Source: Eledone cirrhosa (lineage: Eukaryota). From it: a stretch of DNA of 64,000 nucleotides. Within the stretch, counting starts at the first letter, position 1. Each line of letters opens with the position of its first letter. The translations under genes and the position numbers were made by a program. The DNA is taken from positions 35,092,001-35,156,000 of the forward strand of contig OZ024743.1 in assembly GCA_964016885.1 (NCBI GenBank). The letters are read 5' to 3'. The notes under the pieces were generated by a model. That model was given only the letters and a program-made list of their open reading frames with translations, was not told where the DNA came from and did not search any database. This document shows positions 541 through 59,329 of this stretch, one piece after another.

Positions 541-3500
541 AGTCACATATATTATAGCCATTAGAAAAAGCAAAATGAATGTTTCACCTTCGATGGAGGA
601 ATGACTCAAGAAGAAGAAAAGATATTCTTTAAATAAAAGAACAAAAAATTATCAAAAATATTAGAAAACCTGACTACAATAGCTTATTAACTTTATTAGA
701 GTGAAAAGGACAACTTTACAATTTTAATTAAGAGTCAAGGAACTAGGACAAATTGAAAGGCAGAACTGCCAAGTGGCAATCTGATTTTATTGCTGTTGAT
801 GTTGCTGAAAAGGTTTATTTTGTTAAAATTCTATAATTAAAGCAAACAAATAAGTGAACAATAATTTTAAAAATTGTATGCTGTTTTGAGTAGCAAGCTG
901 TCACTTAGGTAAGGCATTGGAGAAAATACTCTATAATGTTTAATTTTGTCTATGTTATGAATTTAAATCGTGCCACGAGTGATTTCGCCTTTCAGCATTT
1001 AATGGTACATAAAATAAGTACCAGTAATAAACAACAATTAATTATTTCCATAGTTGGCAAAAATCATGCATAGTAAAAAGAATTCATTTTGAAAATCAAT
1101 CAGCTGTCATTGTTTGCTTAATTGAGCTTGAGTCATTTAGATTCTTTTCTACATATTAAACAAAAATAAAATGTTGATACATGTTATAGAGCCGTTTACA
1201 CAACTGTAACTTCTTTTTCAACCCAAGTTTCAAATTAAATGAAATTTACAGCTCCCAGCTATGCAAGTTTAGCTGGCTTCCTACAATGTTACATCCCATG
1301 GGAGGTTCCTTGGGTGTTTTCGTGATAAAGGCCCCAATCCTATCATGAAAAGCAGTGTGAAATCAAGTGTTTCGCTCAAGAACACAATGTGTTGTCCAGT
1401 CTAGGAATTGAACCTACAACCAACCCCCTAACCACTAAACCAGGTGCCTTCATCTTCAAAACCTAGTTTACCGTTAAGCTTTCTATTCCATATTTTAGAC
1501 ACAGACACATCCTCTTGAAATCTCCCATATATCCAAATCTCCCATGTATCATATCCAAATTATGTGCAAACAGATGAGATGTTTATAGTTATTCACTTTA
1601 TTCAATGTAATAGTCAAATTGTGTGCAACAAATCTCCAGCTGTTTTAAAAAGAAGACCATCTGTTTTAAAACATCAATATTTGTTTGTACAGCATGTCAT
1701 ACAATAGAGAAAGGTGATTTGCAGCTATAAACATTAACTAAATACTCTTCTTGAGCAGAGTTGTCCATAATGGCAACTACATTACAATTTCATCAATCAT
1801 AACACTCCACCCTTCACCCACATCCTAACACCCCACCCTACATATGCACATCTCCCTCACCCCACTGTAAAGTGGTCATTTTGGTACCACAGTAAAAAGC
1901 TCCCAGTTCACACTGTAAATGTGGTTGGTGCCACAAAAACCAAACCAGAAACAGTTCTGTATGAGCAACACATGATCATTTGATTTGGTTTGTTTCACAG
2001 CGGGGCAACTCATCTAACCCATGCTAGTGTGGAAAAATGGGCATTAAACAGTGATGATGATGATGACAGAAATGCCTGACCAATGACAGATATAACATCC
2101 AGAATATTATGAAGCTGCTGTGTTAGTATCTATATACTATCAATATATTGTGAATTCCATAATAAGAACACCTACTACCTTTATATATTCTCCATAATCT
2201 AAATATTAGATTCACTGATTTCCCTAGAGACAACTTTCCTTTTGGCTTTGACTCTAGTCTATTCAAACTTAACTTCCTTATTCCTTTTGGGACCAAACTA
2301 TTTGAAACCAGCCCAGGCTCTATGATACGAAACTGTTTCAAAGTGACTATATGTATCTAAAAACTTACCAACATGTATGTAAGAATGTTTGTTAAGTTGT
2401 GATTTCAGCACCAGGTAAATAAGGAAGTTATTTCACAAATTCCCTTCAAATTCTTGTGGTTATTTTCATGAGAAATATAGTAACAGAGGGTTAAGCTACA
2501 TACTACTTAATTTCCAGCTGATCTGATATAATTTATGATGACTAGTATGACCTTCAAAGAATATATAAGATTATTTCTAAATTTTTCTCTAAACAAAAGA
2601 CTACTGATATTTATCTAGGACGTCAGTAATGTAGAACGATTCAACATGTTTACATCTTATTTCTTGAGAGGTTTTAGGTTCAATATAATTGCCTGGCAAT
2701 CTGTTTTATTTTTTCATATCTACTAACTTCACACAGTTGTCAAAGAGCCAATAAAAGAAAATTTAGATGTTGGATGAAAATCAGAAGTTGTATTAATATA
2801 GAGAAATGTTGAAATAGTGAGTAATAAATGAAAATAATAGTTTAAAAGGAACATACAAAGAATGGGTAGCAATTTATAGAAATGTAGCTTATTTTAAGAA
2901 TATCTTGTTTTCTCTTTATCACTAATTATTTTTTGTTTAATTATATATTATTATGTCTATATCCTGTGGAAATTAGAAAGGCATTGAAAGAAGAGAGAGA
3001 GAGAGAAGATCAGATTTAGTACAATTAATTTTTCTACAGATTTAATATTAAGAAGAAAACATTCGAAAGGAATGGTAGTTTATAATTGATGATGGACATG
3101 TTAAAGAGAACAATATGACAATCAGGTTGAGATGCTGCCACAAAACTAAAAAGCAAATGAACTGATAACATTATTATTAGAAGGCTAGCATACTAAAAAA
3201 AAGATGTGTGAATAAAAACAAATATATTTTTTAGTATTGTGACAAGAACCAAAATCCATTCAATTCAGATGAGATAATGTTGAGGATATGTAGGTTTCTG
3301 ATAAATCCACAAGACATTACCTATTCCAGTGTATTTCTGGAAGATCCTTGAAAATGATGTAATGGAAAGTAGTAACAGAGTATTTTATCTTTGCTGAGGG
3401 ACCACACCAGCTTCTTGCTGCTTAAAATTAGAGACACATGATCTCTGCTGCAGTGTGCAGATAAAGATTCACATTGATAGAGCTAAGAGATAAGGCCTAG

Positions 3501-29650: not shown

Positions 29651-30232
29651 TTGGTGATCCTAATATTCTCCAGTACAGCCTGAGGCTAGAGGTTGCAACC
29701 AAATCCTTTCCCAGGCTGAGTGGTTTTAGGCCATTTTACAGAACTAAACAAGAACACAGGAATGGATATATATACATACACACATACATACACACACACA
29801 CATTGAATATAAGTGTTGTGTTTCAAATGTATACCATTTAATGTGTGTATGAGCATGTGCATATATATATATAGAGAGAGATTAGATAGATATACATACA
29901 GAGCTGCAATTATTTTCCAAGAAATTGCCCACTAGCTGATTCAATTCTTTCCCACACAATAGTGGATACTACTGCTGGTATGTATATAATACATGTATTA
30001 TTTTAATGGCTTCTATCAATGGAATGTGGCCATGTCTGAAGCATTACTTTCTGGAATATAGTTGACCACACTATTTTATCAACATTGGAAGGTTGAAAGG
30101 CAAAAATGGACCTGGGTAGGATTTGAACGCAGAAGATCATTATCAAATATATACAAACTATAATATTTTGTTCAACGTTCTACTGATTATGCTACCTATT
30201 CATACACACACACACATATATATACATATATA

Positions 30233-30434
30233 TGGAGTGTTTGTGGTGCAAAGGCTGGGAAGACCACAAATCAAGGTAGTACTATATGCATGAGATACAA
30301 AGTGGGTATATTGAAGAAGTAGAATCTCAACTGCATGCCCAGCGCTTTTCAGCTTATTCTCTACCCATGAGAAAGCTAGAGTGAACAAGCTGAAACTGCA
30401 GGGCTCGCAGTCGAGATTCTACCCGTTCAATATA
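30233..30434 (-). mobile_element. PLE-like remnant: degenerate inverted repeat with a hammerhead 3' half plus tail
   Basis: Arms ~30307-30362 and ~30378-30434; GAAAC-tgc..gca-GTC at 30392-30412; tail homologous to 58806-58882; (TA)n on both sides. Confidence 0.65.
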
Positions 30435-46732: not shown

Positions 46733-46770
<38 letters not shown>

Positions 46771-46773
<3 letters not shown>

Positions 46774-47798
46774 AGATAGAAAAATGCGTACAGCAAAAAA
46801 AAGTAATATTGTTGGAATATAAACCTTTAAAAATACAGGACAAGAAACTAAAATAAAACTTTAAAAGAATAGGACAAGAAACTAAGATAAAACTTTAAAG
46901 AATTGGACAAGAAATAAAAAATTTTACAATAATATTAGTGGCAAAATTTTTATTGGTAAAAAATCGAGTTCCACATTCATAGGCTCTGGGTTCCATATTC
47001 AGAGGTCGTCGTCAGACCGGGGGGATCATTTGATCCTGGTTTGAACACCAATTGGGCCATAACCATACCCCTATTTCATCATTCGGCGACACGCCTCATG
47101 TGTCATGCATAATGTGAATGGACCCATGGGCCCATGAGCACAGATCTTGAGCAGCAGCGGACGGTCTTGTCGTCCTGCTCATCCTTGATCTTGACCAACC
47201 CGTCCATCTTCTCCTTGCATCTTGTCCTTGAGTTCAAGTCCGGCAGTCCAGATGAATGCATGCCACAGCTTTCTGGTACAGGAAGGGGGAGCAGGAGGAC
47301 TGGAGGGATGACGGGACAGAGGGAGGGAGGACCGGTAGTCGGTGTCAGAGTCGACATCTTCTCCATCTTCGTCTGGTGTTGCGGGACCAGAAGTGCATTC
47401 TTGGAGGAGACCTGCAGCTGCATCGGCCAATTCTTCTTGCAATGGTCATTCTGATAGAGCAGAACTGCTCAGCCAACCAACCCCAACCAGAACCAACCGC
47501 TCAGGGGCAACGCACAATGAGAGCATGACAATTATTATGCACTAATCAAGAAGATACTGGGGCATAGCACAGGAAACGAATAAAAAAATTTTGCCACTAA
47601 TATTATTGTAAAATTTTTTATTTCTTGTCCAATTATTTAAAGTTTTATCTTAGTTTCTTGTCCTATTCTTTTAAAGTTTTATCTTAGTTTCTTGTCCTAT
47701 TCTTTTAAAGTTTTATTTTAGTTTCTTGTCCTGTATTTTTAAAGGTTTATATTCCAACAATATTACTTTTTTTTGCTGTACGCATTTTTCTATCTGGT
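46771..47798. repeat. Long inverted repeats (46771-46954 and 47579-47798) with 34-bp internal subrepeats
   Basis: accagatagaaaaatgcgtacagc... versus ...gctgtacgcatttttctatctggt; the motif ggacaagaaa occurs 3 times on the left and 4 times (reverse complement) on the right. Confidence 0.95.
46955..47526 (-). pseudogene. Decayed GC-rich ORF of unknown function between the inverted repeats
   Basis: One frame runs MLSLCVAPE...QEELADAAAG...DEDGEDVDSD...IWNPEPMNVELDF with four TGA and one TAG stop, consistent with C-to-T decay of CGA/CAG codons. Confidence 0.45.
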
Positions 47799-48071
47799 CT
47801 ACTATTTTTTAAGGCAATGCAAGCAACAACTATCTAATAATTAAATGATCATAGTGAATTACTGACAAGTGATTGACATTTTAAAGTTCTTTTGAGTATA
47901 ATTGCAATCTAATTGAGGCAACTGGCTTAATAACAAAGCTAGTAAATCATGAATGCATTTGAGATGATTAGTGCATAATAGTGAATTGGTGAAACTTGTG
48001 CATTTCAATGGTGTTACAACAATAGATGTAAGTTATATAGTAGTAATACTTTATCATTTTAACTTTTTAGA

Positions 48072-49607: not shown

Positions 49608-49738
49608 ATAGAGATATGTAAAATCCCGACTGCTTGGTACCGCGGTCAGGATTTGACATATCTCTATATCCATTCTACATCTCCCCATGTATCGAGTACT
49701 CACATGATTAGTGCCCCCTCCAACTCAGAATTGCAGCC

Positions 49739-49740
<2 letters not shown>
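49608..49740 (+). mobile_element. PLE-like remnant: inverted repeat centred on hammerhead stem III plus tail
   Basis: 26-bp arms 49608-49633 and 49642-49667; GTC at 49645-49647; tail tatccattcta...tatcgagtact homologous to the 58806-58882 tail. Confidence 0.6.
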
Positions 49741-49816
<76 letters not shown>

Positions 49817-50242
49817 ATGTAGGAGGTGAGTTTTATTGTAGCACAATAAAGCAATGCAAATATCGGATAAGTAGCACTCTACAGTTTGTAGGACTGGAGT
49901 ATAAATAATATAAGATCAAAAGATGGTTAAAAGAGTTCCAAGTATTTTATTATGCGCATTTCAAAAACAAATATCATCATGGGATGATATCTGCGTTCTC
50001 ATCAGATAAAATAGGGATACATGATATGAAGCTTAAAAAGCACTTGTGAATAGTGAAGTTTTAAATCAACATATATGTTGATTTAAAACTTCACTATTCA
50101 CAAGTGCTTTTTAAGCTTCATATCATGTATCCCTATTTTATCTGATGAGAACGCAGATATCATCCCATGATGATATTTGTTTTTGAAATGCGCATAATAA
50201 AATACTTGGAACTCTTTTAACCATCTTTTGATCTTATATTAT
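49817..50242 (-). mobile_element. PLE-like remnant: 338-bp perfect palindrome (49905-50242) plus ~88-bp tail
   Basis: 169-bp arms with no spacer, centre 50073|50074; a hammerhead in each arm; (TA)n flanks. Confidence 0.85.
50134..50204 (+). ncRNA. Type-I hammerhead ribozyme (mirror copy 49943-50013 on the minus strand)
   Basis: Stem I tattttat/ataaaata; CTGATGA 50142-50148; 16-bp stem II; GAAA 50185-50188; palindromic stem III ATGCGCAT; UH site T50195-A50196. Confidence 0.85.
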
Positions 50243-50369
50243 ATATATATGTGTGTGTGTGTGTATATATATATATATGTATGTAAAAGGTAAACAGAAA
50301 TAATAACACAATCAGTACAGTATATGGAATGAATATATTAGGTTAATGCTTGAAATAGCAGGAAGAGGG

Positions 50370-54434: not shown

Positions 54435-54440
<6 letters not shown>

Positions 54441-54848
54441 GATATTAACAAATGGAGACTATCTTTATAAAACCATATCTATTTTATTATACATATTTCA
54501 AGGATACCATGTTAAATTATGGTATGCTTTCATCAGACAAAATACAATATATAACAGTTTTATAAATAAATATTGACAGGGATGTCTTCCAAAAGTAACG
54601 GTTGCATTTTGAAAGGGTATGTCAATATTTATTTATAAAACTGGTATATATTGTATTTTGTCTGATGAAAGCATACCATAATTTAACATGGTATCCTTGA
54701 AATATGTATAATAAAATAGATATGGTTTTATAAAGATAGTTTCCATTTGTTAATATCGTATATTTACTCCAAATACTTGTCGAGTGCTTTATATCAGTTA
54801 TAAAAATATTTGCTTGTTGTATCCCAACAATTTAAATAGAACTTTTGC
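54435..54848 (+). mobile_element. PLE-like remnant: 144-bp inverted repeat (41-bp spacer) plus ~85-bp tail
   Basis: Arms 54435-54578 and 54620-54763 with 2 mismatches seen; a hammerhead in each arm; (TA)n flanks. Confidence 0.85.
54654..54718 (+). ncRNA. Type-I hammerhead ribozyme (mirror copy 54480-54544 on the minus strand)
   Basis: Stem I tattttgt/ataaaata; CTGATGA 54662-54668; stem II aagcataccat/atggtatcctt; GAAA 54699-54702; stem III ATATGTAT; UH site 54709-54710. Confidence 0.8.
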
Positions 54849-55524
54849 ATATATATATATATATATATATATCAAGTGTTAAACTAATATATATATCTTC
54901 ATTGTACTGTGTCGTTTGCTTTGTTGTTTTTTGTTTACTTTTCACATACATAATTTGTGTATATATATATATGTGTGTGTGTGTGCGTTTGTACCATATA
55001 AATTTGAGTAATCATGCACGTATGGGTATATATGTTTGTGTGTGAGTTTAGATGTGGGTGGATATGTGTGGGTGTCTATCTGCAAGTGTGTGTAACAGTA
55101 ATCAGGTGAGGTAAGAGATCAGTAAAATCATTTAAGAGACATCAGATGTTTGTTGGCAGCTGAGACTGAGGTGTTAGGGACATGTGATATCAGTAGTGAT
55201 GGTGGTGTCAGTAATAGTGGTGGTTGGTGGAGGTAATAGTAGCAATAGTAGTGATAGTAATGGTGGTGGTGTATGTAGTGATGACAATAGTGGTGGTGTA
55301 AATAGTGATGGTTGTCTCAGTAGTGATGCTAATGATAGTGCATGTTGAGATGCTGGTTGTTGTTGACTTCAAACCCACCCCGATTAAAGGCATTTTGGTC
55401 TGTTTAAGTATATCTAGGACTACATTATCTTTTTATGTTCTTTTCTTTCTAAATGGCTATATGTCAGGTAGGATTTGAGGAACATTTGGCCGTTATTTCT
55501 AGCAGAACAAACGCTCATATAGAG

Positions 55525-57744: not shown

Positions 57745-58786
57745 CATCATCATTGGCAGCTCAGTCTCAGGAGACCATGCTAAATGTGCCTGGAGTTATA
57801 TCTAGTCACTGACATCGTCTGCTGTGACTGTGCAGACTGACCCACGAGTAACAGTCTTTGTTGCACTTGGTTGTTGGTATGTCTGTGATGTGCTTTTTTC
57901 AGTGCTGGCTGAGCAGGGAATTTATGATTGGAATCCTGGCACATTGTAGGATGTCATTGTGTAGGATATGGTCATGCCAGCTGATTCTGAGGATGTGTTT
58001 GAGACACTGTATGTGGAAGACATTGAGCTGACGTTCTTGCCTCATGAAGGTGCTCCAGGTTTCATGTCCATAGAGCAAAGTGCTAAGAACACAGGCCTAG
58101 TAGACTCGGATCTTGGTGTGTTCTGTCAGTGCCTTGTTCTCCCTCACCCTGATGGTGTTTGACTTCCCAAGCCACCTGTCAAGTTAAATATCAGGTGAAA
58201 GAGTGTTGTTGATTGTAGACCCCAGGTAGGTGAAGTTGTCCACAGCTTCCAGAGTGACACTATCGATTTTGATTTTGATTGCGGTGGCCATATTGACATC
58301 CTGTGAACTGACGTTGGTCTTCTTCAGGCTTATAGTAAGCCTGAACTGCTTGCAAGCATCAGCAAAGCAATCACTCAGTTTCTGAAGAGCTTCCTCAGAG
58401 TGAGCCACAAGGGTGCTCATCAGCAAAAAGCATCTCCCTGATGAGCACCCTCCTCACCTTAGCTTCCGAGTGCAGCCATGATAGATTAAAGAGTTTTCCG
58501 TCTGATCTGGTGTGCAGGTAGACACCGTCACTGGACGTGTCAAAGGCATAGGACAGGAGCAGGGAGAGGAATTCCCAAAGATGGTCTGTGCCAGCTCACA
58601 GCCCTGCTTAACACCACTGTTGATGGGGAAAGGATGTGAGGAAAATCCATCATACAGGACTGTTCCCTTCATGTCAGTATGGAAAGAGATCAGTAGGCTG
58701 TGGTGTTTTGGGGGCCAGCTGATCCTCTTGAGAAGTTCAAATAGGCCCTTTCTGCTGACCAGGTCAAAGGCTTTGGTGAGTTCTAT
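57745..58786 (-). mobile_element. RTE (BovB-like) LINE RT fragment, a second RTE family
   Basis: IELTKAFDLVSR, SGVKQGC, AHSEEALQ, LTISLKKT, FTYLGS motifs; frameshifted. Confidence 0.9.
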
Positions 58787-58805
58787 ATACATATATATAT
58801 ATATA

Positions 58806-58988
58806 ACGAAGGAAATGTGGTAAGGAACCAGGTGGACCATAACTCACCAAAGTACTCAATACTTAGGGTAGTAGAGTGGGTAATAGGAACGAGTAAGACC
58901 CCGACGGCTGAGCTCAAGCCGTTTCGACGGCTAATTCAGAATTAGCCGTCGAAACGGCTTGAGCTCAGCCGTCGGGGTCTTACTCGTT

Positions 58989-58993
<5 letters not shown>
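58806..58993 (-). mobile_element. PLE-like remnant: 111-bp palindrome centred on hammerhead stem II plus ~77-bp tail
   Basis: 55-bp arms with a 1-nt centre at 58938; GAAAC-ggct..agcc-GTC at 58951-58973; no CTGANGA; (TA)n flanks. Confidence 0.75.
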
Positions 58994-59045
<52 letters not shown>

Positions 59046-59329
59046 ATATGTGTGTCTTTATCCGTTTGCAAATGACTATCATGATAAAGTTGATCACTAT
59101 GAATAATAGTTGAGAAAATTGAGAAAGTACTACTGGAGGCAGAACAAAAGGTGGACAGAGATGTCCATATTGTTTTTTAACCCGCATCTTTTGGATGTCA
59201 GACAAATGTGATAATCATCTATGTTAAAAAGCTTCTGACAAGATTTTAAAGTTGTAGCTCTAAGTGTAAACAACAGTTGATATAAGAAACATTGGGAACA
59301 TTTTGAAATTTCATATATATATAGTATTC

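Follow-up and report, generated by a model that had tools for sequence, protein, structure and literature searches.

Palindromic half-hammerheads in Eledone cirrhosa as probable insertions of a Penelope-like element primed from both strands of a (TA)n target

Introduction

Penelope-like elements of the Hydra clade, which carry a C-terminal endonuclease (EN+), were described by Craig et al. 2021 (PMC8557442). In the available text of that paper, the tail and the inversion were ascribed to endonuclease cleavage, and run-off at the RNA start was not mentioned. The Anolis element Poseidon was studied in vitro by Frangieh et al. 2024 (PMC11167929). Both strands of an AT-rich target were cut and extended, two internal start sites of reverse transcription bracketed the tail near the junction of the pseudo-LTR and the ORF, and a dimer was predicted. 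The later steps (second strand, inversion and tandems) were left open in the accessible part of that report. The transcript of Drosophila Penelope begins within the upstream pseudo-LTR (Schostak 2008, PMC2377424). To explain the junction palindromes of Penelope elements, Arkhipova et al. 2013 (PMC3846280) put forward self-priming on an antisense template. Minimal hammerheads have been reported from Penelope-like elements and from non-LTR retrozymes (Cervera and De la Pena 2014, PMC4209133; bioRxiv 10.64898/2026.07.22.740005). In PMC4209133, tandems were explained by circular RNA, which is an alternative to jumping between templates.

In this study, we analyzed a palindrome in a window of 64,000 nt of Eledone cirrhosa DNA (contig OZ024743.1, positions 35,092,001 to 35,156,000). 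A preliminary description had proposed that a cDNA ended within a ribozyme stem, folded back and primed its own second strand.

Results

The palindrome consisted of two perfect 55-bp arms (58883-58937 and 58939-58993) around a 1-nt centre at 58938, with (TA)n flanks on the left and right. Each arm read GAATTAGCCGTC-GAAAC-stem III-GTC-GGGGT, which is the 3' half of a type I hammerhead. Coordinates were counted from the hammerhead cut site, which was set to 0. The tail-side arm (minus strand) corresponded to -34 to +20 of the parent element and contained the 3' strand of stem II, GAAAC, stem III, GTC and the 3' strand of stem I. The tailless arm (plus strand) covered the same -34 to +20, with GAAAC at 58951-55, stem III at 58956-70 and GTC at 58971-73, and it ended at GTTCC/TAT. 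A tail of 77 nt (58806-58882, minus strand), corresponding to +21 to +97 past the cut site, was present on a single arm, and its counterpart in the parent continues into the beginning of the ORF. The tail-side arm and the tail matched the parent at 127 of 132 bases. The last three bases of the left (TA)n target (58784-58805) matched the TAT at the tail end of the element, and the right target was read from the sequence at 58991-59049.

The absence of a CTGANGA half and its replacement by the reverse complement of the 3' half, as first described, were confirmed. Neither strand of this copy carried both core halves with stems I to III; the 3' half alone was present, on both arms. An Rfam search of the window gave no hammerhead, only microsatellite-driven miRNA noise. 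All 40 scored matches, which were the best matches to the query, contained the whole 188-bp unit at 98-100% identity. This meant that the palindrome was not a chance arrangement. TA-rich runs were found on both sides in all 30 near-identical copies, and the exact junction of the window was found at 513 sites in the genome.

The tail end had 21,124 exact matches in the genome, and the hairpin of the window was one of more than 20,000 short insertions of a ribozyme-bearing element. For an unbiased sample, 97 copies were taken by position, from the first matches on C1 (97 of 100 places) and with one tail variant. Five of the 97 spanned the whole ribozyme. The locus L144 held a full-length parent with a unit of 3,542 bp. 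It comprised an inverted truncated copy with the tail, a partial direct copy and a full copy ending at GTTCC/TATA, and the tail was present on the inverted copy only. A 786-codon open frame contained reverse transcriptase (RT) and GIY-YIG motifs. In the 719-aa ORF, FDIESYY was at 253, YRDDG at 348 and VIYQC/YIG at 591/606, so that RT was followed by a C-terminal GIY-YIG domain; DKTG (117), RWR, CNCPDRSIC (572), CNLC (670) and CKH (698) were also present. A homolog search gave 2054 mostly unnamed proteins. Look-alike clusters carried GIY-YIG, RVT_1 and HTH_animal. A direct Pfam scan of the ORF gave 0 families, and a sequence search of the PDB gave no significant match.

The locus thus combined an RT and C-terminal GIY-YIG ORF, a pseudo-LTR tandem, an inverted 5'-truncated copy and a one-sided tail, which are the features of EN+ Penelope-like elements. 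By its motif set, compared with the definition in the available text of PMC8557442, and by its (TA)n targets, the parent is a putative Hydra-clade element. It shared RW(K/R), DKT, the CxCX5C linker and the endonuclease CxxC and CxH with that clade, as well as the pseudo-LTR hammerhead, (TA)n targets, tandem and inverted 5'-truncated copies and the one-sided tail. In contrast, the unit was 3,542 bp (generally less than 3 kb in the parts of PMC8557442 at hand) and the tail was approximately 77-80 nt (30-40 there). Stem II of approximately 53 nt, a [C/T]TGA[G/T]AA core and the dominance of stubs of approximately 190 bp also set the present family apart from the clade as that text presents it. The Neptune clade was rejected, since the linker was CxCX5C and not CX2-5CxxC with CCHH, and the motif set matched Hydra in the same text. 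A non-LTR retrozyme was also rejected, because the stubs were head to head with half hammerheads and were not tandem units with complete hammerheads. The architecture of the element is already known, and the element behind this short palindromic insertion is of a known kind. In this respect the preliminary description was borne out, as it had pointed to inverted 5'-truncated ends of a hammerhead-bearing Penelope-like element.

Some other loci of these families were observed. At L146 (G000:C1:6670900-6678000), copies of the same hammerhead end enclosed an RT frame of 452 codons that differed clearly from the ORF of L144; it belongs either to a nested element or to a second lineage that is autonomous. 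Stubs of related families stood side by side in the same TA runs at L007, L019, L020, L028, L071, L129 and L140. This indicated that TA tracts were reused as targets.

The native hammerhead was ACCCC-[C/T]TGA[G/T]AA-G, stem II of approximately 53 nt, GAAAC, stem III, GTC and GGGGT. Three-stem folds with the variant core were obtained in L080/L144, L068 and L072, and this was not the lowest-energy fold in L059 and L097. A genome pattern search for a parent with stem I and CTGANGA gave zero matches. The 15 matches to CTGANGA-gap-GAAAC and the 6 matches to TGATGAGTCC were rejected as parents because they were junction sequences or chimeras. Of the parent that had been anticipated, the RT with a GIY-YIG ORF was found, and the core proved to be the variant and not CTGANGA.

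The 12-bp hairpin of the window had been assigned to the hammerhead's own stem II. However, the 5' strand of stem II in the parent was GATCGGCTATTT, approximately 76 nt before the cut, and the 5' strand of the 12-bp hairpin was an inverted copy of its 3' strand. Any inversion just before GAAAC yields such a hairpin, so it is a product of the inversion and not stem II of the ribozyme. Copies ending at +1, the predicted cleavage product, numbered 82, against 28 at 0 and 9 at +5. These ends give modest, indirect support to the predicted hammerhead cleavage after GTC.

The window contained further palindromes. An element of an older relative family with the same plan was located at 30222-30432 (minus strand), with its tail at 30222-30309 and the tailless, plus-strand arm as the longer one. 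It had been described as showing the same pattern as the focal palindrome, but its tailless arm contained ACCC-ATGAGAAA-GCT..AGC-T-GAAAC at 30363-30397. The 5' core half, ACCC-ATGAGAAA at 30363-30374, was present, which meant that this arm extended past the stem II loop. Relatives showed CCCTTGAGAAA. Another older relative was located at 49608-49745 (plus strand), with a tail at approximately 49668-49745. Its arms (49608-49667) met at the palindromic stem III loop, as originally noted, and the homology of the tails of the three elements was likewise seen, with ACCCA/TCCA...AGTACT common to all. For the two older families (30.3 kb and 49.6 kb), copies were chosen by their similarity to the query, and such a sample cannot place a start.

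Two further families had a whole CTGATGA hammerhead in each arm. In the family B palindrome (54435-54855, plus strand), with 1,908 tail matches in its family, the hammerhead was canonical; the arms (54435-54578 and 54620-54763) were followed by the tail, and the axis was upstream of the ribozyme. A fourth family was represented at 49817-50247 (minus strand) by a near-perfect palindrome of 348 bp with 174-bp arms (49900-50073 and 50074-50247) and a probable tail on the left. Its axis lay approximately 70 nt upstream of the core. At 46768-47801, inverted repeats of approximately 180 bp, A/T-rich with internal tandem units, flanked a GC-richer core of 630-770 bp, which looks like a different mobile element.

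The outer ends of the focal family were fixed at +20 for the tailless arm and +97 for the tail arm, each at TAT. The inner ends piled up. Among the tail arms, 56 of 97 (56 of 92 short ones) ended at -45 to -33, where a uniform distribution would give 10% (P ~4e-32; three values in this set were corrected by hand). The same interval held 50 of the 60 tailless-arm ends. Only one tail arm (of 97) and one tailless arm (of 60) ended at the native stem II apex; three tail arms and two tailless arms ended in stem III, and seven and one, respectively, near the cut. Junctions were mostly unique, with short homologies or small insertions. A minor class of 563 sites was centred on stem III; snap-back would account for it, and so would annealing between two cDNAs. 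The expected peaks of inversion centres were found in part: the distribution was non-uniform and included this minor stem III class, but there was no peak at the stem II apex.

The wall was located at T[T/C]AGTCC, with A at -40, and this site fits the initiator consensus, which we take to be YYANWYY. The wall was read straight through at 3046 sites. Long copies among the 100 matches listed had T (88), C (12) or G (0) at -41. In contrast, G-AGTCC occurred 3045 times and the form with A 599 times, and part of the 3045 derives from the CTG of the opposite arm. The extra G was found in both arms at the -40 wall at 147 sites, against 2 for A, and the same both-arm test at -37 gave 0 for G and 0 for A. 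Reading such a G as a copied cap is based on other reverse transcriptases. Among the matches listed, 31 of 50 double-G junctions had a single A/T centre and only 2 had no centre; these centres may point to some fold-back of one end. The inner ends were spread over approximately 12 nt, and approximately 9 arms in the 60-copy table ran 2-4 templated bases past -40, suggesting several starts or some chance matches. The wall is probably the 5' end of the RNA, with the start site and the cap deduced from DNA.

In the focal family the wall happens to lie within stem II, and in family B it lies outside the ribozyme. By eye, 8 of 30 family B copies ended approximately 90 nt upstream of the core, and 1 of 30 had its centre in the loop of the true stem II. 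Of 50 listed family B junctions, 5 had an additional C following the A of CCACT, in three distinct sequences. At L212 (~1250-1290), a 15-bp inverted repeat was located at the family B wall with unrelated coding-like sequence upstream, which may reflect a short fold-back with a subsequent jump. The claim that ribozyme structure sets the breakpoints did not hold, because the main pile-up was at the probable RNA 5' end and the axes in family B and in the 49.9-kb palindrome were outside the ribozyme.

The two arms were compared in 60 inverted copies. The tailless arm was longer in 18, the tail arm in 17, and the arms were equal in 25. In 12 of the 60 the tailless arm was longer by at least 5 nt, and in 6 the arms did not overlap; the 30.3-kb element of the window was also a tailless-longer case. 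Such copies could not come from snap-back of one cDNA. Fold-back alone is insufficient, because the tailless arm formed from a tail-primed cDNA can never exceed the tail arm, and a cDNA that lacks the tail has none to pass on. Deletions that struck a longer palindrome unevenly at a later time could leave copies resembling the tailless-longer ones. Diagnostic variants were mirrored between the arms at 150 of 155 sites (70 expected), which indicated that both arms usually came from one RNA or one source. This mirroring also fits copying of one arm from the other. The second copy in L129 had differing haplotypes between its arms at two linked sites. The tail was present on both arms in L063, L263 and L267, meaning that both primers began at +97.

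Among 30 ORF-bearing copies, 6 started at -43 to -34, and in 15 an intact hammerhead was present upstream. Pieces of the ORF start, in sense orientation, were joined directly to -43, -40, -39, -37, +1 and +1, and further sense pieces were joined at -40 and -39 (L054, L126). The joins at -43 to -37 and at +1 suggest jumps by an RT that has run off either of two kinds of 5' end. Run-off copies jumping to other RNA ends may explain the pseudo-LTR tandems; a jump to the -40 to 0 repeat at a cleaved 3' end would give such tandems. Alternatively, long copies could arise by priming at an uncleaved 3' end or on a circular template, the latter being treated in the accessible part of PMC4209133. Tandem arrays of at least four full-length units were observed at L248-L251 (G000:C1:91.47-91.49 Mb) and at G000:C1:437.20-437.21 Mb, with spacings of 3,542 and 3,531 bp.

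Discussion

We consider it likely that the palindrome is an insertion of a Hydra-clade Penelope element for which both strands of the (TA)n target primed near the probably capped 5' end of the RNA and the copies ran off and were joined. Reverse transcription would be primed by both target strands close to that end. Two short cDNAs would then run off the RNA, and joining of their ends would give the inverted stub. The fold points would mark the joined run-off ends of two cDNAs and not a snap-back on a ribozyme stem. Instead of being joined, the run-off cDNAs may jump onto other RNA ends.

In the twin priming of LINE-1, two primers at one target site lead to an inversion. The internal position at which the second primer anneals varies in that case, and there is no overlap between the arms. 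In contrast, both starts were fixed here and the arms overlapped. In LTR elements, a short cDNA, the strong-stop DNA, runs off the capped 5' end and then jumps in the first strand transfer, and a tRNA primer, RNase H and integrase are used. Here the target would be the primer, and no RNase H or integrase domains were seen among the motifs checked.

There was a biochemical likeness to Anolis Poseidon, with two start sites, extension of both strands and an AT-rich target. However, according to the available text of PMC11167929, the start sites in Anolis are non-homologous to the target and there are no reads for hammerhead-cut ends; here both starts ended in TAT matching (TA)n, and a minor class was present at +1. 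The elements in the part of PMC3846280 at hand also have head-to-head inverted pseudo-LTRs, junction palindromes, an optional tail and an Inr-like motif in the pseudo-LTR. Unlike the model proposed there, the arm asymmetry and the extra G favor two target-primed cDNAs from sense RNA. The hammerhead was of type I with a palindromic stem III loop and was located in a pseudo-LTR, as in the accessible text of PMC4209133 and bioRxiv 10.64898/2026.07.22.740005. Unlike the non-LTR retrozymes of these sources, the stubs had the 3' half only, were head to head and were products of an autonomous element. In the literature covered, which consisted of main texts with few from subscription journals, no paper linked Penelope-like elements to strong-stop DNA, twin priming or a G derived from the cap, or described run-off at a capped end with two primers in these elements, and we found no earlier mention of the extra G or the jumps.

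The explanation first offered, in which one cDNA stalls in a ribozyme stem and self-primes, with hairpins setting the axes, is very improbable. The 12-bp hairpin is absent from the parent, and, for the one sequence variant tested, the genome contained a single copy of the product that exact fold-back at the apex of the native stem II would give. The 12 tailless-longer and 6 non-overlapping copies among the 60 have a geometry that is impossible from one cDNA, the axes of family B and of the 49.9-kb palindrome are outside the ribozyme, and the untemplated G and the fixed stop at +20 are left unexplained. This explanation would suit the 563 stem III-centred junctions, the single family B copy in 30 centred in the stem II loop, the common single-base centres and the mirroring at 150 of 155 sites. 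Self-priming was not a new idea, as it had been proposed for rotifer Penelope palindromes in the available text of PMC3846280. As the main route, snap-back of a single cDNA is already refuted; it is a possible minor route. An unlikely variant keeps the run-off at the capped 5' end but has the RT or a host repair polymerase often build the second arm by folding back that single end, so that a minority of copies would be primed from two sides. The extra G at -40 agrees with this variant, as do the symmetric one-base centres (31 of 50 among the matches listed), the short templated insertions at the junctions of L096, L128 and L136 and the near-complete mirroring. However, fold-back predicts zero tailless-longer copies, and 18 were observed against 17 tail-longer ones. 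It would also have to stop precisely at +20, where full-length direct copies end as well, and the double-G count is near the expectation for independent arms (a rough estimate of ~180).

Instead of a transcription start, the wall might reflect stalling of the RT, or breakage of the RNA, where stem II has its A/U-rich tip. It is on the 3' side of a predicted apical hairpin, and some arms pass -40 by a few bases. We regard this as improbable, because the extra G is specific to -40, the site fits the initiator, 3046 sites read straight through and the wall of family B is outside the ribozyme. It is scarcely credible that the palindromic unit spreads as a non-autonomous element, with a few palindromic masters being copied in full. 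The 513 sites with the window's junction, and its presence in 40 of the 40 best matches, would be expected of masters, but 513 is approximately 2% of the tail count, junctions mostly differ among unbiased copies, and the window's junction was found on four mirrored haplotypes. Among the copies examined, no subfamily combined a rare junction with a mutation confined to one arm.

Joined run-off of two target-primed cDNAs is therefore preferred for the stubs. A wider, hybrid Penelope cycle is proposed more tentatively, at somewhat less than an even chance. The promoter would start the RNA within the terminal repeat, here within the hammerhead, so that the 5' copy would be disarmed. Both target strands would prime near the capped end and give strong-stop DNAs. 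Successful jumps would give pseudo-LTRs and tandems, failed jumps would give palindromic stubs, and the tail would be the gap between the two start sites.

The young family would archive thousands of aborted events. The start site, the cap signature, the pair of primers and the template jumps to which these events point are each testable with the existing in vitro system. Its genomic evidence bears unusually directly on a step of Penelope replication that is still open. Caution is needed because hairpins at such junctions arise from inversion, not from ribozyme stems. At L031:1293-1565 and L039:1295-1560, an arm of the focal family was head to head with an inverted hammerhead-like arm of another family, and the two junctions were nearly the same. 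These chimeric junctions may represent mixed-family two-sided priming or a propagated chimera.
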